From assembly GCA_905178155.1 (NCBI GenBank), contig CAJINV010000004.1:3319320-3383319 (forward strand): 64,000 bases of DNA. The letters are read 5' to 3'. This document shows, piece after piece, positions 6,417 through 58,600 of the stretch. Origin of the DNA: Amoebophrya sp. A120 (Eukaryota; Protista; Dinoflagellata). A model generated the notes under the pieces. That model was not told where the DNA came from and did not search any database. It saw only the letters and a program-made list of their open reading frames with translations. How positions within the stretch are numbered: position 1 is the first letter of the stretch; each line of letters starts with the position of its first letter. The translations under genes were made by a program, and so were the position numbers.

Positions 6417-9400
6417 GCTTATGGGAGTGTCAGAATCGAAATCGTCAGAGTTGAAATAATTTGTGATGCATAAAACGGATACCAGTTGGAAGCCCAATTT
6501 CCAAGCGGCGCATGACAAATTTGAGTAGAACCGAAATCCAGTCTGTCATGCTGTTTGAGTAAGGAAGACGCCTTTTGTCATGCTACTTTAGCAGCTCTAT
6601 TTCTACTCCGCAACAGGCTTACAATCTGCCTCCCTTGCCTACTCTGCAAGACAGGCACTTTGTGGGTTGCATTTTATGCATCACAAACTATTTCAACTTT
6701 GACGATTTCAATCCTGACACTCCCATACTGCTCGTATCATGTTTGAAATTTGACGTCGTCGAGACACCCGGAGCTGCGGACCCCCTCGTCTTCGATCCCT
6801 CGCGACTTCTGTTCACCAGTTTCAGCTTCTTCTTCTGCATCGTCTTCCCGGTTGCAAAAGGCGCAGGAGCTTCTTCGTGATGTTCTACTTGTTTCCCAAA
6901 CGCGATTTGATGCTGGTGGTCAAACAGGGCCGCTGCGTTTTGGTCAAACTCAAAGGGCGATGTTCTACTTGATGCAGTTGATGGCTGCTGGGCGTTATTA
7001 TCTTCAACTCCTCGTTGTTGACCACTCCTGTTCAGAAGCTTGACAGAGGAGCTACTTGATGCAGCCGGGTAAAACACGAAGTTGTGCTGTTGTTCTTGTT
7101 CCTGGTATCCAGGAAAAAACACCCATCCCCATCAATTTTTTGCATGACAAATAGTGGACTTTATGCATGTTTTGCATGACAAATTGGATGGGGATGGGTG
7201 TTTTTTCCTGGATACCTGGTGCGCTCCCTCTACAAGCGGGACGGCGACGCTTTCGCTTGCCTCGTCTCCGGTCATCTGCGAAGCGGTCGCGTCTACGAGA
7301 CCGTGTACTACGTTGTCCTCCGTACTAGGTGCTTTTTGTGCTGCCGTAGTACCTCCCGCGAGGAGTTGTGCAGCGGGCTCCGAAGGAGCGGACGAGGCCA
7401 CGCCGCTATTGCTTTCTTGGGTCTCCACTAGTTGTACCTTGGTCACAGGGGTTTGCTGTTCGGCAGCAGCTGCAGAAGATCTTTCTTGTACCTGAAGTCC
7501 ACCGTCTCCTTCTACCAAAGCCGCAGGATCGACTGCCGCTGCGTCATCGACAGGCTTAGTTAATATTTTCGACGTCCTGCTTGCCGACGCTGAGTTGTTT
7601 ACAATTTCTCTACTGCTCTTTCGCCCCTCAGCAACAGGTGCCTCGCTTGTTCTAATTTCTTTCTGCGAGCCCGCCGAGGACCCCTGCCGCATCCCCTCTT
7701 TCAACATCTCGTCATCCCCGAGGACGTCGTTCGCAAGCGAAAAAGGGGCCACTTCCGAGGACGCCGGTGTGGCCTTGCTGCTCGACTCCTGCGGCTGTGA
7801 AAGAACAACATCATCGACGTTGTTTTTCAGCGTTGTTGCGCTACTTGTTCTAGCGGGCCCGGACTGACTTGTCTGCGTTTGCCGCCTGTCCATCATGATC
7901 CCCGCTAGTGTGGCCCGTGTCTGTGCAGCGGTTCTTGAAGCTGCTGCAGTTGATGTCCCTGCGACCACGTAATTGTTGTCCGGCGCGTTTTATCAAATGT
8001 AAAAATGTCTGGGTCTGCAAGGTTGGAACTTGTGACGCAGCTAACTTTGTACTCTAAAAACCTCTGTATTGCATGACCAGCAAGAGGAATCTAGTTTGTG
8101 CTACGCGGGGAGGGCATTTGTCATAAGGAGTAGGCATCAGGAAGCCCTCTAAAAATCTGTGATGCTAGGTCGTGCATCACAGACATCCTGGGTCGTGCAA
8201 AATATGCATGACAAACCCTGCAACATTCCAGACCCAGACACTTTTGCATTTGATACGTTTGAAGACAGTACATCACCGTCGACCGCACTGGAAGTCGGTG
8301 TGTGCTGCTCCTGCAGGCCTGTTTGGGGATCATGATTCTCCGCCACCTCTAGTAGAGCAGCTGCGTTGCTCACACTGGGTTCGAGACTTGGGGTGTTGGT
8401 ACCACCACCGTCGTTGGACGAGGAGAGCGCCACGACCCGCGGTTCGTGCAGCTCGCTATCCTCTGGCTCCTCCTGCACCGGCGTAACTTCCGCACTGGAG
8501 GAAAAGATCTGGTTATTTTCGGGCTGTTCTATTACTTCCGTTGGAATGATTTCAGGTTTATCTTTCACACGGCGACTCCGACTCCCCTCCTCCGTCTTTA
8601 TTTCCCTCTTCGGCGGGCCGAACCGGTAGACCTCGTCCATTACCTCGGGTTTCGTGATTGCCTCGATCTGCTCCTGCACCAGCTGTATGCATTGCAAGAG
8701 AAAGAGTATCGTACTAGTATATGTAAATTGCATTACAATTTGTAGTGCCGATTTGCCGAAGATGGGGAATTTGTCATGCGTGATTGCAATTACTACGAGT
8801 ACGATACTTTTGCACAGGATAAGCTGGTCAAAGGCGGCAAGCTGCTTGGCTCTGGTTTCCACCGAGTTAGTCCCCTCGGTCGACAAGACCCGCAGCGTCA
8901 GCCCCGCGGCGCCGGGGAGGACGCCGGGGATCTTCATTTTCATCGTCGGGTCGATGCTCTCGTCCTCGTCCACGCCAGCGTTTAGATTGATTGCCGCGTC
9001 ATACGCCCAGTGGTATTCTGCGTAAAAGAGAACCCGAAGTACTACTTACCCCATAGTCAAACTGATGATGCTCTTCACTCTGCTACACAAGTGCAGAAGG
9101 TTAGACAGAAACGCATGACAAACTTGGGTCCATGTTGTACTTGTAGTCGCCGTTGCATTCGCAGTGAAATATCCACATCAGAAATCGCCTGTCTTAGCTG
9201 ATCCTGATCCTGATGAGTACGGCATCAGCAAAAACATTCCAAAAGAGCCTGCTTGGAAGATGCTCCTCAACCTCATGGGGCTGCGCATGAGACACATTCC
9301 ATTGTAGAAAAGGAAAACTACATGCAAATCCGCATGACAACTCTGGGGTGAAAATTATGGGTACTAACTTCAACTTACGTTTTTCCACAGCATAACCGTT

Positions 9401-37726: not shown

Positions 37727-40700
37727 TCATTCAGGAATGTTGAAGTTGCTCAAATCCCACTGCAGAACTTTTCCGTCCAACCCACAGGTTGCGAACCTGT
37801 GCGGCGCCCGGAGAATCCGCAAATCCGACACGCGTTTGGTGTGGCGCAGCTTGTTCAGGGTTTCCGCCAGGGCCGGGTTCTTCGGCATCATCCAGCTCTT
37901 GGGCTGACCCGCTTGCCGCCGTAAACGCGGCAGGCGGTCGCGGATAGAAGTCGCGGGGGCTGCTGTGGGTTGACGTGGTTCGACTGGTCGGTGGTCTGCT
38001 GATGCACTTTGCAAGAATCGGTCACTGGCTGCAGGTCGTTGCGAATTTCCTCCTCCTCCAGTAGGATTCAGTATTTTTCCGCCAGAATTCATTTGACCAC
38101 TACTGCTCGCTACAGCTTCGCCCGCCATTCTCTCATGGTCGGTGCGTAGGTGTTCGTGTGGCTGACCGGCGGCGGCAGAGGACGAGCCTCTTCTACTTCC
38201 TCCGCCGATGAGACTCCGGCGAATCGCTTGTTGCATTATACTGCCCCCATGGTCCTCGCCGGTCTCATCCCTAATGCCACCAACAGAATTGCTCTTATTT
38301 CTGGAATTCGTTATTCGCGTAAACCCACCATCATGGGCGGCTCCTTGTGCGGCGTCGTGCGGGCCACTTGTGGTCGTGGTTGTCCCTCCGCGGATCCAGC
38401 TTTTGTCGTCGAGTTGCAGGGAGACTCGCGGAGCGGCGGAAGTAGAGCTGGATTTGTTCTGCGCGACAGAACTGTTGGACGTGTTGTTCCCGTTATTCTT
38501 CTCCGGCGAGGCGGACAGACTCAGAAGGGCGGGATTGTCGTTGTTTTTCCGTTTGTTACTCTCGCTGTTCTTCTGTGGTACAAACCCCACCACCCCGTTT
38601 CGAATGTCCCCGACCGGTTTCTGGTAGATCCACTGCGCCGGGACAGCGAGGCTGTCTTTTGTAGTTCCCTGCTCCTCCATTGGCGTGGTGCACTTTCTTC
38701 TGTTCGCGAGTAGTAAGTCATTGTCATCTTCGTCCTCTCCGCGAGAATTTTTCAGTCCTCTGTTCATTCTTTCCACTTCACTTTCCTCCAACACTGCCGA
38801 GCCAAACAGACCCGGGAGCTTCAGCTTACTCGGCCCGGCCATGGGCTGCTGCGAAAGAACCTGTTCGGCGACCAAATAGCCGCCGCAGTACCAGGAGCCC
38901 GGCCCGGTTTCGTCGGCCTCGTCGAAGTAGAAGAAAACTGGCACGTAGTCGAAGCCACAGGCAATCAGGATGTTGGGCGCGAGAAAAGCGACGCAGGACA
39001 GCGGGTAGCCCGTGTAATTGATGATGTGCTCTTCCCGGGTAACCATGTTCGTAATGGTGATACTGCTGTCCTGGCGGCACACCGCGAGGAGCATGGCCTT
39101 CTGCTGGAAGGTGGCGCAGGTCACCCAGGAGTGCGCATTCCCCGCTTCCAGCACGCAGGTGCCGAACGGGGGAGCCAGTTGGGGTGGGGTTTCTGGCTGT
39201 GCAGGAGGAGGTGCAGCGGGGGTAGAACTGCTTGGGGTCGGGCCCACTTGTTCATTGCTTTGTTCTCGTTCCTGCCCCACCGCCTTCACGTTCTTCTGAT
39301 TCTCGTGCTCCGTGCCACGACTCGATGTCGCCCCGCCACCCGCGCCGGTGGCCCACTCCTCGGGTGGGGAAAGACACCCGTCATCATCGACGTCCATCTT
39401 GTCTGCAGCTGCTGCCTCCAACTCCGGAAAGAGCACGTCGGCCTCGCCAGGATTCGCGGGACGGTTGTTTGTTGAGGTTGCTCCGCTATTTTTATTGCCG
39501 CCTTGGTTCTGATGTCCTGTCGCTCCACCTGCTTTAGTTTTGCTCTCTGAAGACGTGCCGGCCGAAGCGGAATGATTCTTCACCCCCACACTACTAGCAT
39601 CCCGGCCCGCGAACGTACTGTACACTCGCGCGGATTTATCAGCCCCGCCTACACAGAGGAACAAATTGCCGCACCACGCCAGCGCCGTGATCGGGTGCGG
39701 GCCGTGGGCCCCCTGCTGCTGCTGTTGGGAAAACGAGAAGTAACTTGACATTGAGCCGCCACTGCGCAGCGGGACACTAGAGCTCGGCTGTTGCAGCGAG
39801 ATGCGCCAGGCGGACCACACGTCGCCGCTCCGTTCCTGCCGCCGCGTGCACACCACGCACTCGCCCGCGACAGTCGCGACGGCGAACCGCGAGGCATCGG
39901 GCGACCATCGTGCGCACACGCACCCGTATAAACTGCAAAAGTATCGCACTCGTATAAATGCATTACAAATTTTAATTTCCTCAGCATGAGAAATAAAATT
40001 TGTAATGCTGATTTACCTTAAGGAAAACGAAAAGATTTGTGATGCATGATTGCAATACGAGTACGATACTTTTGCACAGCATAACCCGAATTCCACGTCC
40101 ATTTGCACCAGCTCCGGCTGGTAAACATGCTCCTCGTTCGGAACCGGATAGTACAATTGGTGGTGGTCCCCTCTGCTGTCAATATTCCGCGGGTCGTGGT
40201 GGTCCTCTGATGTACTTCCGGCTTGTACCAGCGCCAGCTCGTCGCTATTTGCTGCACTGGAAGTGGAAGAACTATGTATGGTCGTGGTCATACCGCCTCC
40301 ATACGGCGGCGCCCGGCGCCACACGTAGGCGCACCTGTCGTGGCCGCACGAAACCAGCCAGCCAAAGCGGTTGAACTGGTATCCAATGCAAACACGTCTG
40401 GGTCTGGAAGAAATTTGTGTTGCTAATATTGACTGCGCAGCAGAGTGGCCGCTTGTACGGCACAACAGCATGAAAAGTTTTTATTTCGCGGCTTCAAGCA
40501 CATTAATTTTCATTCTAATTTAGCAGCACAAAATACGACTTAACATGAAGAAAGAGGTTGCAATAATTCCTATTCCAATCTACGCATCACAAATCTTGTT
40601 GTCCTGCGAAGCTCGCATCACAAACCCAAATCCACACATATTTGCACTGCATAACTCGAAGTCCGCGACGACGTCCGCGTGTTCCTTCAGCACCGCGAAC

Positions 40701-41949
40701 CGATATCCATTGCAACTATGTCTAATTCTGGAAGCTTGCAAAACTTATCTATGCAGTTTTTCCACGCTCCACAGAGTCTGGAATGCAAGCCTGCGCATCA
40801 CAGGTTCTGCACTTTCTTGGTCGTTGTACACGTAATGCCTATTCTCCATGCGAAATTCCCTCTCAACAGCATGGCGAGAAGTGCAAGTGGGCATTATTGT
40901 ATTTACAAGTTGTCACGCATGCCAGATTTTTGTGTGACCCGCACCGCGCATCACAAGTTCGTTCTTTTTCGGAGGACCCAAGAAACATATTTGCAGTGCA
41001 TACCCGGCTCCACTCGGCGAAGCGGTAGCGGTAGACCCAAATCTCGCTCGTGGACGGGGAAGTGAGGGCCATCGTGTCCTCCCCGTGAAAAGCCAGCCGG
41101 CTGACCCCGACGGTAGTCGCCTTGCTTGAGAACACGCGTAGTGGCTTATTGAAAGGAAAAATCCCCCCTCCCCATATCAAGACGAAGTTTCTCATGCTGG
41201 ATTTCCGTACATAAATGCGCGCTGTCTTGCAGTAAGGCATCGCCGCCTGATCCTCAGCCTATGTAGGGGCGTTTGGGTCTACGTCTAGTTGTTTAGCATT
41301 AGAAACGGCTGTCCCCTAGGCCCAACAGCATGCCACATGGCTTCCATAATTAATGGCGCGGAGGCCTCTGCACTTGTCCTCTGGCAAGACAGAAGTTGTT
41401 TGTGGTCTCAAATCAGCAACACAAATTTTCGGAAGCATACCTTTTCGATGTGGGGAGGAGGGATTTTTGCTCTCAATACGGCTCTATGCATTGCAAAAGT
41501 ATCGTACTCGTATAAATGCATTACAAATTTCCTCAGCATGAGAGATAAAATTTGTAATGCGGATTTACCTTAAGATAAAGATTTGTAATGCATGACTGCA
41601 ATACGAGTACGATACTTTTGCACAGGATAGGCTCCACCGCACAGACCAGCTCTTCGAGTTCTCCGAGGTATCAAGTGTAAAAATGTCTGGGTCTGGAAGA
41701 ATCCAACTTGTCATGCTGATTTTGGATTCTAAAAAAATCTGTATTGCATGAGCAGCAAAGGGAGTCCAAGTTTTGCTACACGGGAAGAGCATTTGTCATG
41801 CAGTACAGGCATCAGGAAGCCCTCACAAAATCTGTGATGCGAGGGCATGCGTCACAGTTATCAGGAGTCATGCAAAATGTGCATGACAAACCTGGCAATC
41901 TTCCAGACCCAGACATTTTTGCATTTGATACGAGGTGCTGCTGGCTCAT
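37727..41949 (-). CDS. ARPC1: ARPC1 (Arp2/3 p41 subunit)-like WD40 protein with 6 introners
   Basis: Rejoined SPSTSEIWVY..LKEHADVVAD..LVSCGHDRCAYVW..YQPELV..RWSPDASRFAV..PFG..SWV..QDSSI..PLSCVAF..ACGFDYVP..H..FATCGLDGKVLQWD follows the ARPC1 motif order as I recall it. Confidence 0.7.
39927..40083. mobile_element. Introner family B
   Basis: Family B TIRs; TSD acccg. Confidence 0.92.
40380..40653. mobile_element. Introner family C-like (diverged)
   Basis: tatccaatgcaaacacgtctgggtctgg..ccaaatccacacatatttgcactgcata; TSD actgg/actcg. Confidence 0.85.
40704..41002. mobile_element. Introner family C-like (diverged)
   Basis: tatccattgcaactatgtc..acatatttgcagtgcata; TSD accga/cccgg. Confidence 0.83.
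41147..41478. mobile_element. Introner family F
   Basis: TIR tattgaaaggaaaaatcccccctcccca / tggggaggagggatttttgctctcaata; TSD tggct/cggct. Confidence 0.9.
41485..41629. mobile_element. Introner family B
   Basis: Family B TIRs; TSD ggctc. Confidence 0.92.
41669..41930. mobile_element. Introner family C
   Basis: Family C TIRs; TSD cgagg. Confidence 0.92.
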
Positions 41950-45463: not shown

Positions 45464-46274
45464 TTTGGAAAGAGCCCGCTCCGGTAGTAAACTCTACATA
45501 TTCAGAATCTTCAAACGGCGCTTCTATTTGTTCTTTTTTCAAAACTTACACAAGGGCGCAGCCGCAGGCTATCTCGCGCAGGACAATATAGTCCCTGTCG
45601 CTAGCAGACCGCGCATATTATCTGAGATGAGGTTGGAAGAAAAGAACGGGACAACACTACAGAGAAAGATGTTTTGCGCTGCACCTGCGCGAAACAGCAA
45701 CAAAGTACGCAGGCCCAGTGCGCCGGAACAATAAACCGCTTCTTCATAGAGGATCAACTCATTGCCGCTCTTGTTCAACGATCCAGAAGAGCCAGAACAC
45801 CGGCGATTTCCTCGCACAAGGAATTCTTGTATGGCGACGCGGCTAATATTTCGGCGCGATGTGAAACTTCTCCTTCATTCATCCGCGCTAGGGAATGATG
45901 AAATTGTACTTTTACAATTTTCTCGATGGCATCAAAAAACTCTACAAGAACGCATTCCTCCACATCGTACAAAAGTACAGCTCAATAATTGGATTCAAGA
46001 ATGATGTTGTTCGACCATGCCAAAGCGAAGCTCGGCCTGATGTGAGCATGAGTCTTTCACTTCTCCAGCATCTTCGTCCATATGACAAGAAACCATTTTT
46101 TTTTTGCCTGCGCGAGGGGATTTTAGCCTCTATACACGGCTACCCACATGCAAAAAATAAATCTACTTTCTCGCGATGACAAGAAACCATTTATATATTT
46201 TGTACATTCAATTTCAGCAGCACTCCTCAAGATCATTGTCCGCAGACAACACAAAAAAAAAACACTGTACATTT

Positions 46275-46356
46275 GAAAGTGGACGTCGAGAGTGGAAAGT
46301 GGACGTCGAGACGTTTTATTCAAGTGGAAAGTGGACGTCGAGACGTTTATATTCAA
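46275..46356. repeat. Short tandem duplication, 3 copies
   Basis: gaaagtggacgtcgaga x3 in intergenic DNA. Confidence 0.8.
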
Positions 46357-46578
46357 AAAGCAATTGGAGGGGAAACAAGTGCAGGGAAAACTGGTGCTGA
46401 AGCTGATCTTGTGCTTCCTGTCTGTCGGAGTTTTGTTTTGCCAGTCCCAAAAAAGGAAAATTTGTAATTGTATCCATCCCTCCTTCCAATAATTTCTTGC
46501 AGATGAGCAGTTGTATGCTAATGTACTCTTAGCCTTACAAAAACGCAATCTGGAAACTACAGCAAGCCTTAGCTTTAA

Positions 46579-49151
46579 TTATATCACGCTTGTTTCTGGC
46601 TTGCCGCGTGCCTCATCCAATTTTCCTGAGTGCAGGATTTCCCGTTGATGTAGTACGCGGACTTCTCCACGTCGCGCACGGTCACTTTGCCCACACCGTG
46701 CGGAACGCCCTGCGCCCACTGTCCCGAGTACTGCTTGTTTTCGCGGGTCCTGTTGGATTCTCATTTCAGTTTCATCCTATTGATGTACTTCTACTTCCTC
46801 TACTTCCTAGATTTTCATTTCAATCCTGCAGCATAGAGATAGGCCAAGCTGAGAGTTGTATTTAAGTAACAATCGTTAAGTATTTCTTCAGCACTTGGAG
46901 GCTCCATCAAAACTACAAATTTTACCACGAGAGCGTCCCTTCACCGTGGCGCAGCGAGTCCACAAACTGCCCGACGTAGAAGTTATCCAGGAAAAAAACT
47001 GTGTAAGTGTAACTGTGTAGCGAGAATAGCATCACAAATTCGCTTTGCATTGCAGGGAAGACCTGACATGCGCAGCTAGTACGTGGAAACACGTGTGAGT
47101 GTAGCCTATGAAGCAGACCCAGCATGACAAGTGTAACAGTTTCGCACTTTCTGCATCACAGACTTACACTCACATAGTTTTTTTCTTGCATAGAAGTCCC
47201 CGTTGGAATACTGCCACTTCCCCTGCCCGTGCTGGGTATGAATTGCAAAAGTATCGTAGTCGTATAAATGCATTACGAATTTCATCTCCAGCATGAGAAA
47301 TAAAATTTGTAATGCGGATTTACCTTTAGAAAAAGATTTGTAATGCATGATTGCAATTACTACGAGTACGATGCTTTTGCACAGGATACTGGGCGTTGTC
47401 CAGGAATTCCCCCACATACACGCCCTCATCGTCCGTGAGCCGGCCGTGGCCGCAAATCACGTTGTCCCGCAGCTGGCCCTCGTAACTGCTATCCAAGTAG
47501 AAAGAAGGGATGTAAGTGCATAGACACTTTATTTTTCGACCAACATTCCAGCTCTGAGTGCAAAAACCTCTCATGCTCAGACAGTATGTGAGAACGCCTT
47601 TGAATCATGGGTTTATATACTTATTGGGGCCTACAAAAATGCATGACCAGCATGAGAGACCTCCAGACGAAGCCATCTTGCATTTTGATTTTGCTGCGCA
47701 TCTTGAAGTTACAGTAACAATCTTTTTCCTTGGATAACTGCTATCCAAGAAAAAAACATTGTAGGTGCAACTTTTTTGGAGGAACAGCATTACAAATTCG
47801 TCTGGCATGACAGCAAAAACCTGTCATGCGCAGATAGCACGCGAAAACGCCCTTTAGTGGACGCTGCGATGCATGCTAAGCATGACAGACGCAATCATCT
47901 TGCATGTTGCGCATCACAAATTTACACCAACAATCTTCTTCCTTGGATAACTGCTCCCATCCGACCACTGGTACACGCCGTCGCCCTGCTTCATATGGAA
48001 CTGTCAGGATTGGAATCGCTAAAGTTGAAATAATTTGTGATGCCTAAAATGCAAGGCGCAGAGTGACTGTCTTGCAGGGATTGCAAGTGAGGCCGATTGT
48101 GAGCAGCGTGTTTCGGGTTTGGGATAGAGCTGCTAAAGTAGCATGACAAAGGACGCCTTCTTTCGCTAAACAGCATGACAAACTGGAGTTCCATGACGTC
48201 AAAATTTGTCATGCGCCGCTGGAAAATTGGGCTTCCAACTGGTATCGTTTTATAGATATACAAATTTTTCAACTTTGTCAATTTCAATCCTGAAAGTTCC
48301 ATACTTCACCCCCTTGACATAGTTACCCTTGAAAACGGTCTCGTCGTCGAACCATGTTTCGCAACCTGTCGTGCAGCAGTTTTTCAACATGCTCAATAGA
48401 AGTTGTACGAAGAACCATGCACTCCCTCACAAATTAAATGCAATCTACTCTCTCAACATGTCATCATAGATTGATACATGTTCGTTGTGTTCGTCGCCGT
48501 CCTCATGCCCTTGGGCGTAAATTATGATTAAAAAAATTATGACAAAAAAATATAGCGATACGAATGAGAACTTGTTCTACCGAGCCCGTGCTTCTCGCCC
48601 GCCAGCCAGTTTCCCTTGTACTCCCCCGCCGTGTCCTTGAACCAACCGAGACCGTGCGCTCGGTTTTCCTCCCACTCTCCCTCGTAAAAGCCTGCGGGGT
48701 CCACGTACGTGTACTTGCCCCATCCGCTTTTGAAGTTCCCGCTCATCTGCCTGATCGTTGGTTTTCATTCACGATGGCAGTGCTCTGTTTTTTCTATTTG
48801 CATAGTTCTTATCATGTCATGCATTTATTTACTCAGCAACTACAGAACCGTCAGGAGTACTTCTATACTCATTACTCAAGCACGAATATCAGGATCATGT
48901 GAATGACGACCGCACTAGTACCCTTCATAAGAGGTCCCGTTCGGATTGGCCCGGGCCACATGGTTGTTGACCTGTTTGGCCTTGACCCTGTCGCCGTACT
49001 GTGCTCGTTTTGTGTCGTAATCCTCTTGGAGCTGCTTGACCTTGACCGCAATTTGGTCGACCCGATCGAGGCTGTCTTCCAGCGCGCGCTCGTCGTTCAA
49101 GATCTCATTGCTTTTGTCGCACACCGCCTGGCAGCACGCCGAGTTTCCCAT
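46579..49151 (-). CDS. MORN-repeat protein with N-terminal acylation-like motif; 3' end approximate
   Basis: MGNSACCQAVC start; repeats such as YEGEWEENRAHGLG, YKGNWLAGEKHGLG, YQWSDGSS|YEGQLRDNVICGHG, YVGQFVDSLRHGEG. Confidence 0.85.
46984..47192. mobile_element. Introner family D
   Basis: Family D TIRs; TSD gaagt. Confidence 0.92.
47237..47388. mobile_element. Introner family B
   Basis: Family B TIRs; TSD ctggg. Confidence 0.92.
47490..47736. mobile_element. Introner family D-like, first of a tandem pair
   Basis: tatccaag..cttggata; TSD actgc. Confidence 0.88.
47742..47949. mobile_element. Introner family D, second of a tandem pair
   Basis: tatccaagaaaaaaacattgtaggtgcaa..caatcttcttccttggata; TSD actgc. 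Confidence 0.88.
47994..48303. mobile_element. Introner family A (reverse orientation)
   Basis: Family A TIRs; TSD cttca. Confidence 0.92.
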
Positions 49152-50336
49152 CCTGATTGGGTCAAGAACAGCTACCGACAGAGATGGAAGGAAGCGGAAC
49201 GAACGACGTCGTGGGTGGAAAAAAATAGGCCCGCAGCTGTTTTGTCGTGTCGTACTTTATTTCCGATTTCACCCGGGGTCTTCAACAACGAACTGCCCTA
49301 TTTATTCCAATCAGCAAGAACTGAGAGGACCATTTTCACCCTGAAAAATCAGCTCTTTCGGTTTCGTGTTTACCCGACCTACAACCAGGCCCGTGATGCC
49401 GTCGCCGTCGGTGATTACAAATTTACAAAAAATACAGTTTTGAAAAAAACGATGTTGAAATGGGAACCTACAACATTTATGTCCACGTCGAAGTCAGTGT
49501 GTATGCGAGGTCAAGAGCCGAAACATAGGAAGGTATTTGTATTATTAACCAAGAACCACTGCTATATTTTTAGCAAAAACTTCTGTCAGCATTGCATCCT
49601 TTATTTCTTTCCGCCTGAACCCACCAAATAACCCCGAGCACCAAATAATCCCCAGAAGTTGTATAGATCTGCACGAACAAATAGCCCAATGGTATTTTTT
49701 GAAGAAGCGACCTAGTTCTTTAGTTACTCCACATCAAAAAAACGCGAATTTCTATCCCACACGCCGATCCACAGGTCTTCTTCTTCAAATCATCGGAATA
49801 TTGCACGACAGAGTTGAATAATTAATACGAAAAATATGCTGTTGACCACAAGCTGGGTCCCTCACATGATCATAGACATGGTGACGATGACGACGGCCAA
49901 ATATGAACTGCGTATACCGAAAAAACTCGAAGAAGCCGTACTATTCCTCACTATCTCGTGCAGCCCTAGGTAGAAATCGTGCTCCAGCGACGACGAATGG
50001 TTTTTTGTACGCTAATGATTTTATGAACGAAAACAGACCCTCGGACACTCGGACAGCAGAACAAATTTTCGCAGAATGCAAGCCGATGTTGTCGAGCCCC
50101 TTGGCCTGACAGATGGAAGTGAAACTCAATCGAAAATGTGAATGTTCTTTTTCACATCAAGATCAACTCCTTGGAAATACTTCTACTAACTTTTTTGCGT
50201 ATTAATATTTGTAGTTTTTATCCTTGGCATGATCACCACGAGCCCTTCCTCGGAGTAACTAACTAGACAAATTTATTCGCAACGACCCAGCGACCGACTT
50301 TGGGAATAGTCCCCCCACAAAACCGACGTCCACCTC

Positions 50337-55610: not shown

Positions 55611-58600
55611 TCACTTCGCCCCGGTCTGAATGATTTGACACAGCTCGCCGATATTGTTTGCCTTGATCGCCTGGCGACAGGCCTGCACGTATCAAAATGA
55701 AAAATCCCCCTCCCCATATCAAAACGAAATTTCCGATGCTGGATTTGTGTACACGACAAATGCGTTTTGTATTGCAGGAAGGCATTGCGGCCAGATACTC
55801 AGCCTAGGTAGAGGCGTCTCGGTCTAGCTGTTCAGAATGGCAAACGGCAACGGCTCCCCTTTAGGCCCAACAGCATGACAAATCGCTTCCATCATGGGGC
55901 GGAAGCTTCTGCCCTTGTCATCTTGCAAAAAAAATGTGATTTCTGACCTCAAATCAGCAGCACAAACTTTCGGAAACATCCCTTTTCAATATGGGGAGGG
56001 GGAGATTTTCCTTTCCATAGCACGGTGCGGGACTTGGCGGAGCCGCACCGAAGCCGCCCGGCGTTCTGCAGTGCTTGATTCACCTTTTTCAAATGGGACA
56101 GAAGCTCTTGGTAGTTCCCCGCGCGCTTTGTGTGTTCCGCAATCATGTCCCCATTGGTGTTCTGCAGCACCTGGTACGCCCGTCGCAGGTTCTTCATGTC
56201 CGCCAGAATGCGGTAGTCCTCCGCCTTCACTACCAACGCCTTTACCAGGTTCTATGGAATGCAAATATCCCTGGATGTCTGGAAGGTTGCAACTTGTGAA
56301 GCTGTCCTTGGAAGCTAAAAAAATCTGTATTGCTTGACCAGCAAGAGGAGTTCAGTTTGTGCTAAGCGGAGTGGGCATTTCTCATGCGGAGTACGCATCA
56401 GAAGGCCCCTTAAAAATCTGTGATGCTAGGGCATGCATCACAGGCATCAGGAGTCATGCAAAATATGCACGACAAACCTGGCAATCCCAATCTTCCAGAC
56501 CCAGATATAGGTATTTGCAATCCATAGGTTCGAAGAGTCCGCAATTTCCGCCGTCAGTTTCAGCCGCGTGGCGTTGTATCAAGAGGAAGAATCCGCCCTC
56601 CCCATATTGAAACGGAAATTTCTGTTGCTGCATTTGTGTACACAAATCAGCTCTGTATTGCAGTGAGGCACTGCAGGCAAAGCCTAAGCCTGCTTAGAGG
56701 TGTTTTGGTGTAGGTGCTTAGCATTGCAGAGGCCTGCCATGTAGGCGCAGCAGCATTACAAATCGCCTGCATAGAAAGGCGGATTCTTTGGATTTGCCCC
56801 CCTGCAAGAGAGACAGGATTTGTGGTCTCAAATCAGCATCACAATTTTTTAGATAAAGCATACTCTTTCAGTATGGGGAGGAGGGATTTTTCCTCACAAT
56901 ACGTTGTGGCCCTCGACTTGCTTCAAAATCCTGGTGTATCCTGTGCAAAAGTATCGTACTCGTATTGCAATCATGCATTACAAATCCTTCTGTTTAGGTA
57001 AATCCGCATTACAAATTTTATTTCTCATGCTGAGGAAATTTGTAATGCATTTATACGAGTACGATACTTTTGCAGTTCATATGGTGAGCTCCTCCAGTTC
57101 CGAGGGAAAGTGCGCCGCAGCATCCAGCTCCTTCACCTGATTTAGTTTTAGATTTTCATTTTGAACATATTCATAATAATCTGCGACGCATAAAGTGCCA
57201 GGTGCAAAGTGCCTGTCTTCCTTGCAGAGCAGGTCAGTGAGGGCGATTATATATACGCCTGTTCGGGGTTAGAGATATTAGAGCTGCTACAGTAGCATGA
57301 CAAAAGATGTGCTCTTTGCAAAACAGCATGACATCAAACTGGATCGATGGAGGCGCCACTAAAATTCGTCATGCTCCAGTTAGGAATTGGCCTACCACCT
57401 GGATCTTGGCGTCGATTTTCTGCATCACAAATTATTTTAAGTATGTCGATTCTGACACTGACGCTTCCATATCATAACGATAGCCATAGCCTGTAGTACC
57501 TGTAAATGCTGCGTGAGGTCCTCTATAATCTCGGCCGCCAATATCCCACGAAAAAGTGTTACAGTTACACATGTGTTGTCAATTCAGCAACACAAATCTT
57601 CTCTGCATGAGAGGGAGAACTTGCAATGCACAGACCATAAGGCAAAACACAGATGAAATGAAGCTCGGATGCAGTTCTGGCATGCCAGAGGTTGTCTATC
57701 ATGCTGGGCTTGCAACGCAATGTGTAACTGTAACACTTTTTTCTCGTGATAGCCAACTCCAGGTCGTCGGTGCAGGCGACGAACTGGAGCTCGTGTCCTT
57801 AGTAAAAAAGTCCCCACCCCACAGTCAAGTTGCAAACTCTGCAACACAAATCCGGGAGTTTTGGCAGCCATGCATGACAAGTTCGTCTTTGTAGTGTAGT
57901 GCAGGTATTACGAATTCCAAAACAGGATTGGAAATCTTCAATGCTTCTCATGTAGATGCGCATTTAGAAATGTTCCTGTCATTGCAAATCTGCATGACAA
58001 CTCTGGTGTGGGGACGTTTTTGCTCAGGATAGCTCGTTGCGGTTGTTCGGGCTGTCGGAGGTTTCCAGCAAGAGCGCCGTTTGCTTCCGTAGGGAAACAA
58101 ACTGGCACTGCAGGTGCGCGTTGGAGTTGCTCGGGTTCGGGTTCTATCCTGTGCAGAAGTACTATCGTACTCGTAGTAATTGCAGTTATGCATTACAAAT
58201 CTTTTTCCTAAGGTCAATCAGCATTACCAATTCCATTTCTCATGCTGAGGAAATTTGTATTGCGATTTATACTAGTACGATACTTTTGCAGTTCATAGGT
58301 TCTTTGCGTTGATAAAATTCTTTGCGAGCCATTGCCAGATGCGGCTCGCGGTTATCCAGGAAAAAAACTGCGTGAGTGTAAGTTTCTTGGAGGAATAGCA
58401 TCACAAGCTTGCTCTGCATGACACAGAAAACCTGTCATGCGCAGCTAGAACGTGAAAACACGTACGAAAGTTGCTTCTGATGCATGTCCAGCATGACAGG
58501 TGTAACAGTTTTGCATTTTCTGCAACACAAAGTTACACTAACACAGTTTTTTTCTTGGATAGCAGTGACGGGAAGAACAATCTTCACGTTGCCGGCGGGC

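Follow-up and report, generated by a model that had tools for sequence, protein, structure and literature searches.

Two abutting introners in a MORN-repeat gene of Amoebophrya sp. A120 are both missing from RNA-type contigs, which skip 465 nt

When two introns of transposon origin abut in a coding sequence with a single copy of the target site between them, does the transcript lose both at once, or one after the other through an exon of zero nucleotides? Amoebophrya possesses tens of thousands of introns without GT-AG borders, and their removal mechanism is given as unknown in the text of the genome study (PMC7789003). Such a pair is present in the window, the 64-kb stretch of DNA analysed here, within a minus-strand gene for a MORN-repeat protein of about 284 amino acids (46509-49153, limits approximate). 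Three copies of the target-site duplication (TSD) ACTGC, read as GCAGT in the transcript, flank two elements with terminal inverted repeats (TIR), E1 of 247 nt (47490-47736) and E2 of 208 nt (47742-47949). Both start with TATCCAAG and end with CTTGGATA. These positions and shared termini are the ones given in a preliminary description of the locus, which had quoted the plus strand; the gene is read from the minus strand, so that the transcript meets the TSD copy 47950-47954 first, then E2, the middle copy (47737-47741), E1 and finally the copy 47485-47489. The elements are not nested, they abut and both ends of each lie outside the other. They were also said to differ in length and body. The length difference stands, but the bodies are homologous throughout: E1 and E2 share their orientation and can be aligned in full, with 73 % identity. 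E1 is the more diverged element with several small insertions, while E2 belongs to a repeated family of about 210 nt, and six further members of the E1/E2 family were found within the window. In each element the TIR is exact over 8 nt and 11 of the 13 terminal letters match. Although the bodies have diverged by 27 %, the middle TSD and each of the four 8-nt ends are intact, and the inner end of E1 is its best conserved part (84 % identity to E2 over 51 nt). A runs of at least three A, placed after TAT and about seven further letters, occur at three of the four ends (AAAAA, AAAAAA or AGAAA-type); the transcript-5' end of E2 has GAAGAAGA instead. In DNA-type contigs compared at 90 % likeness, the depth over E1 was flat and near single-copy (57-75 in the bins of 47444-47651, 41-51 in the flanks). 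The E2 bins reached a summed contig depth of 23,000-52,000, which is not a copy number; read in the same way, close genomic relatives are numerous for E2 and nearly absent for E1.

The assignment of both elements to the introners is supported by their ends, TSD, length and non-GT-AG removal, the last being seen for E1 and E2 as a pair. According to the text of Farhat et al. 2021 (PMC7789003), A120 introners have non-canonical ends and inverted repeats of 8-20 nt that start with TAT and an A run, direct repeats of 3-5 nt across the exon/intron borders (5 bp according to the Fig. S19 legend) and a mean length of about 240 nt; the splicing mechanism is stated there to be unknown, the cut position is left open and U1 was not found. 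The elements of the window resemble them in the TIR starting with TAT, the A run, the 5-nt direct repeat, the non-GT-AG ends, the genomic repetition, the mean length (229 nt) and the GC content (about 50 %).

The reading frame of the host gene constrains what has to leave the transcript. Seven RNA joints were detected in this gene, three GT-AG and four non-canonical. Downstream of the tandem lies an exon with a MORN repeat (47389-47484, minus strand; Pfam PF02493, E 3e-5), represented by the piece 47389-47482 of an RNA-type contig. Upstream, an exon of 39 nt net (47955-47988, minus strand) separates the tandem from the next element (47994-48303) and is bordered by the joints 47482>47948 and 47988>48304. 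Pfam matched MORN in both exon peptides searched, that of the downstream exon and that of one upstream exon. As first described, the MORN motif DGSSYEG is in an open frame only if both elements and two TSD copies, together 465 nt, are gone. The four other forms tried (two TSDs kept, either element kept, both kept) lead to a frameshift or a stop. Canonical GT-AG borders were rejected by frame and register tests, whether or not the middle 5 nt was treated as a micro-exon. A metagenome scan with the MORN exon yielded eight loci with 34-65 % identity, all distant MORN proteins and none with an orthologous site. A 26-nt repeat with the core AAAGTGGACGTCGAGA occurs three times in the 3' untranslated region of this gene's transcript (46271-46348).

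The predicted product was found in RNA-type contigs. The RNA status of the sequencing runs X3-X6 is predicted; X3, X4 and X5 behave as RNA, with GT-AG joints in X3 and X5 and element skips in all three. The joint 47482>47948 skips 465 nt with depths of 123 and 68.8 in contigs of X3 and X5, which represent one RNA-type sample, and its depth in the DNA-type run X1 was 0. Hence both elements and two TSD copies are indeed absent from these contigs, and the joined form exceeded the unspliced form (123 to 5.3 and 68.8 to 3.1). Eight letters at the joint fit both sides, and none of the nine possible registers has GT-AG, GC-AG or AT-AC borders. Skips of 213 nt (E2 only) or 252 nt (E1 only) were not among the 15 of 109 joints listed, in contigs, which drop rare forms. 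The raw RNA run X9 was uninformative, its 33 partial reads all falling into a single repeat bin; X7 and X8 looked like error-rich DNA and added no information.

Single elements reveal the rule behind this product. RNA joints were available for seven single elements, and in all seven the loss equals the element's length plus 5 nt (214, 157, 315, 162, 279, 304 and 267 nt); the tandem, taken as a composite of 460 nt, loses 465 nt and fits the rule just like one element. The TSDs of two elements are imperfect, and these two, 40380-40653 (span 40375-40658) and 40704-41002 (span 40699-41007), disclose from which copy each retained letter stems; the latter has mismatches at two of five TSD positions, yet its loss is exactly its length plus 5. 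Given one register for all elements, we infer that the cut is placed inside the TSD, 1-3 nt before TAT at the 5' side and 4-2 nt after ATA at the 3' side. In the tandem, the 3' cut of E2 and the 5' cut of E1 would consequently share one bond. Removal in one step and removal in sequence both obey the rule, so that the mRNA cannot separate them. The term zero-length exon, used in the preliminary description, holds as geometry for the middle TSD copy, whose net exon length is zero; as a statement on mechanism it would hold only for sequential removal. An AG|GT ratchet point is not present at the junction: in ATA-GCAGT-TAT the AG and GT overlap, and no register gives AG followed by GT.

Is such a close pair exceptional in the element population? 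Pairings of TAT with ATA flanked by a 5-nt repeat occurred 36 times in the window, 29 of them with an exact TSD, while each of 20 shuffled sequences contained none or one and no exact case was present in any of the 20. The element class is thus not a product of chance. An exact 5-nt repeat was present at 21 of 58 TIR pairs; repeats of 4 nt or of 6-9 nt were present at none. The element list was derived from 58 relaxed candidates by removal of ten composite, internal or weak cases and addition of one recognised by eye (40704-41002), giving 49. For the spacing test two were added, resulting in 51 elements and 50 gaps, with a fitted exponential as null model. Twenty-eight of the 50 net gaps were at most 300 nt long, with the values 0 and 1 and then none until 30. 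Net gaps of 2-29 nt were absent among the 28 against 5.7 expected (P 0.002), which suggests a low tolerance for exons of such small size. For gaps of 0-1 nt the expectation was 0.45, and at least one zero gap has a P of about 0.20. With elements as dense as they are locally, chance suffices to explain one zero gap; the empty range from 2 to 29 nt is the stronger signal. Only two gaps below 35 nt were present among all ends found, the tandem and the pair 41147-41629. Uniform insertion of the 29,850 published elements into about 47 Mb of coding sequence would yield about 10 same-site pairs per genome, and an assumed 45,000 elements would yield 22.

Several further observations concern spacing and length. 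The net gaps between neighbours cluster at 30-59 and 96-112 nt, as would result from a lower limit on exon size or from insertion in phase; for exon lengths, periodicity at about 50-60 nt is borderline (null fraction 0.05). Element length plus 5 clusters in the 51 elements at about 114, 150-166, 213-220, 252-284 and 299-344 nt. The best length period is 54 nt (R 0.54, from families that are not independent), and it could reflect a chromatin repeat shorter than the nucleosome. Five contigs of X1 that stem from other genomic loci connect the end of an element of a 152-nt family with the start of an E2-like element, with unknown letters in between (joints 47388>47741/47742 and 46984/47237), possibly representing further close pairs. 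A TAT..ATA pairing (12/13; 55990-56606 and 55690-56901) overlaps three other elements; it may be a sub-terminal repeat inside the 330-nt family or a nested arrangement. A short element of 109 nt (7106-7214) has a perfect terminal inverted repeat of 28 nt and is possibly a very recent insertion.

The second close pair consists of two unrelated minus-strand elements, 41147-41478 (332 nt) and 41485-41629 (145 nt), which are 6 nt apart with overlapping TSDs and leave a net exon of 1 nt. The product of the gene that carries them is presumably WD40-like, judged from resemblance by eye. The inner junction was seen in the window sequence and the spliced form in RNA-type contigs, where the joint 41142>41630 skips 487 nt (depths of 26.5 and 7.1; two samples of one study). 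This amounts to both elements plus 10 nt, or the composite plus 4, with one net base remaining. The frame is kept only with 487 nt; a skip of 488 nt, as the rule of length plus 5 would demand for removal in one step, shifts it. Folding predicted a pairing probability of 0.0 for the outer ends of the pair, with a cost of 8.5 kcal/mol if they are forced together, while the elements' own ends pair with probabilities of 0.68 and 1.0. A loss of composite plus 4 with unpaired outer ends implies that abutting elements are cut singly or that the junctions follow the direct repeats. Abutting elements can thus probably be handled one by one, which argues against a single step for the tandem. The T retained at 41142 would prove two steps only for a cut immediately at TAT; with the register inside the TSD, it decides nothing.

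The origin of the tandem is an axis separate from its splicing route. We slightly favour a later insertion of a related copy, E2, into one TSD of the older E1. The unrelated pair 41147-41629 supports this reading, since independent insertions evidently land on nearly the same site. A local head-to-tail duplication of an introner with its TSD, by slippage or unequal exchange at the 8-nt repeat TAACTGCT, is a credible alternative that we place a little below an even chance. It would account for the same orientation and for the sister position of E1 and E2 in a tree of the eight family members of the window (SH-aLRT 96.3, bootstrap 97, nine exclusive shared columns). The motif TATCCAAG at all four tandem ends, compared with one of 94 other ends, and the eight letters at the RNA joint that fit both sides also agree with it. 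A duplication is opposed by the unequal branch lengths (0.27 for E1, 0.10 for E2) and the unequal repeat depth. Moreover, another sister pair (51789 and 57542, 82 %) occupies separate sites, which indicates that subfamilies recur by ordinary insertion, and a copy with 93 % likeness to the end of E2 exists elsewhere in a contig of X5. The earlier proposal of a second insertion into the same 5-bp target is kept with slight preference only, because within the window neither E1 nor E2 has a closer relative than the other.

For the removal, our preferred reading, held at about even odds, is that E1 and E2 leave in one step, as a single composite intron of 460 nt. In this model, which presumes that the splicing machinery reads an RNA stem, the machinery would recognise the terminal TAT..ATA stem, cut inside the TSD and remove the element plus 5 nt; the outer ends of the composite would pair, with the two inner ends folded back around the middle TSD. 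The composite would satisfy the stem and TSD rule like one element, and no special machinery would be needed. Predicted folds of the tandem transcript agree with this geometry: the outer plus inner pairing reaches -178.4 kcal/mol with probabilities of 1.0, compared with -170.6 kcal/mol for each element on its own TIRs. The difference of 7.8 kcal/mol has the same order at 20 °C, the fold has a z of -4.5, and the middle TSD is predicted to form the 5-nt loop of the inner hairpin. Cross-pairing of this kind is generic for like-with-like tandems (seven of 11 same-family constructs, none of ten cross-family constructs), so that it is no sign of adaptation. The longest single element listed has 339 nt, compared with the 460 nt of the composite. 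Equilibrium folding predicts splicing imperfectly: on the transcribed strand the elements 39927-40083 and 47237-47388 are spliced despite predicted end pairings of only 0.14 and 0.36.

Sequential removal appears somewhat less probable to us and is a serious competitor. E2 would leave first, co-transcriptionally on its own stem, and E1 would then be cut at the regenerated junction of exon, TSD and TAT, which would render the middle copy a true zero-nucleotide exon. The companion pair is most simply explained by two separate cuts. Folding likewise permits this order, since each element placed alone between the exons closes its own TIRs (probabilities of 0.98 and 1.0), and in folds of the growing transcript the stem of E2 is retained with a probability of 1.0 up to 26 nt into E1 and lost by 41 nt. 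The integrity of all four ends and of the middle TSD, together with the good conservation of the inner end of E1, points in the same direction. The full-length fold, in contrast, prefers cross-pairing by the 7.8 kcal/mol given above, and the predicted time window comprises just about 30-45 nt of transcription. The absence of 213-nt and 252-nt joints from the 15 of 109 listed has little weight, as contigs drop rare forms. With similar reserve, we consider that a non-GT-AG machine with a fixed cut inside the TSD may work recursively through exons of 0 and 1 nt; if so, the two pairs would be the first examples of this among non-canonical introners.

It is rather unlikely that the junctions are set by pairing or sliding of the direct repeats instead of the distance from a stem, with the 0-nt and the 1-nt pair both removed in one step. 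Every joint falls within a direct repeat, as this model predicts, and the composite plus 4 of the companion pair matches the 4-nt repeat 41143-41146/41630-41633. In a variant, reverse transcriptase jumping between the repeats may make part of the joined cDNA; template switching is a source of false non-canonical joints known from the text of PMC2923612. Against both versions, the joined form outweighs the unspliced pieces, the 465-nt joint shares one contig with three GT-AG joints, and the frame was restored in all cases checked. An exact loss of length plus 5 at 40704-41002, with its two TSD mismatches, speaks against guidance by direct repeats.

An assembly merge of two alleles with one element each, which the preliminary description had named as its refutation, is very improbable, because it requires the inner junction to be missing from the reads and contigs cross it. 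One X1 contig (47363-47771) connects the exon, E1, the middle TSD and the adjoining 30 nt of E2 with no differences at a depth of 49.6 (41-42 in flanking contigs). An X5 contig from another study (47572-47764) contains the same inner junction with no differences, extending 28 letters past the end of E1, below the 31-letter bridging threshold, at a depth of 3.1, and the DNA joints listed include none of 213 or 252 nt. In favour of a merge, the listed contigs, all assembled from short reads, include none that spans the entire tandem or the border between E2 and the exon, and the window itself may derive from X1.

Each component of this arrangement has a counterpart in other organisms. Head-to-tail dimers with one TSD copy at the junction arise by double insertion of the Drosophila P element, as far as the text of McGurk and Barbash describes them (10.1101/158386). 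The tandem shares this structure, but P-element dimers are not introns and need not leave the RNA, whereas the tandem interrupts a coding sequence and is removed by splicing. Zero-nucleotide recursive splicing is known from Drosophila ratchet points, AG|GT sites in very long U2 introns proven by lariats in the text of Duff et al. (10.1101/006163). The tandem would resemble them only if removal is sequential, with the 3' and 5' cut at one bond and a net exon of zero; it differs in having no AG|GT, a total of 465 nt and a transposon origin, and is known here from the joined product only. A single-nucleotide exon has been described for Arabidopsis APC11 (text of PMC4674806). The companion pair 41147-41629 similarly keeps one base between two introns, which unlike those of APC11 are non-GT-AG elements with TIRs, the base originating from overlapping target duplications. 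Fungal stwintrons are described in the texts of PMC8469720, PMC9024468 and PMC12403724 as nested canonical U2 introns of two units that proliferate. The tandem is likewise a complex intervening sequence of two intron units; in contrast to stwintrons its units abut and are non-canonical. The main and supplementary text of PMC7789003, figures being outside this scope, does not describe abutting elements or a shared TSD. No report of abutting introners was found in the texts consulted (including PMC12130899, PMC9860276, PMC11282704 and 10.1101/2020.10.14.339549); figures, supplements and subscription papers could hold cases. Same-site dimers and zero-nucleotide exons are each known, while their combination in introners was not found reported.

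As a locus alone the tandem is of modest interest, since about 10-20 such tandems per genome are expected by chance. Its main value is that, together with the 1-nt pair, it makes the splicing mechanism testable. Abutting elements are natural mutants that separate a stem-measured cut, the recognition of end motifs one by one and guidance by direct repeats: the models differ in the intermediates of the 0-nt pair and in the products of the 1-nt pair, and with imperfect TSDs, RNA data already at hand reveal the cut register. If removal in one step is true, introners would have a way to become longer and to give rise to new composites by fusion of neighbours. If sequential removal is true, Amoebophrya performs recursive splicing without canonical signals.
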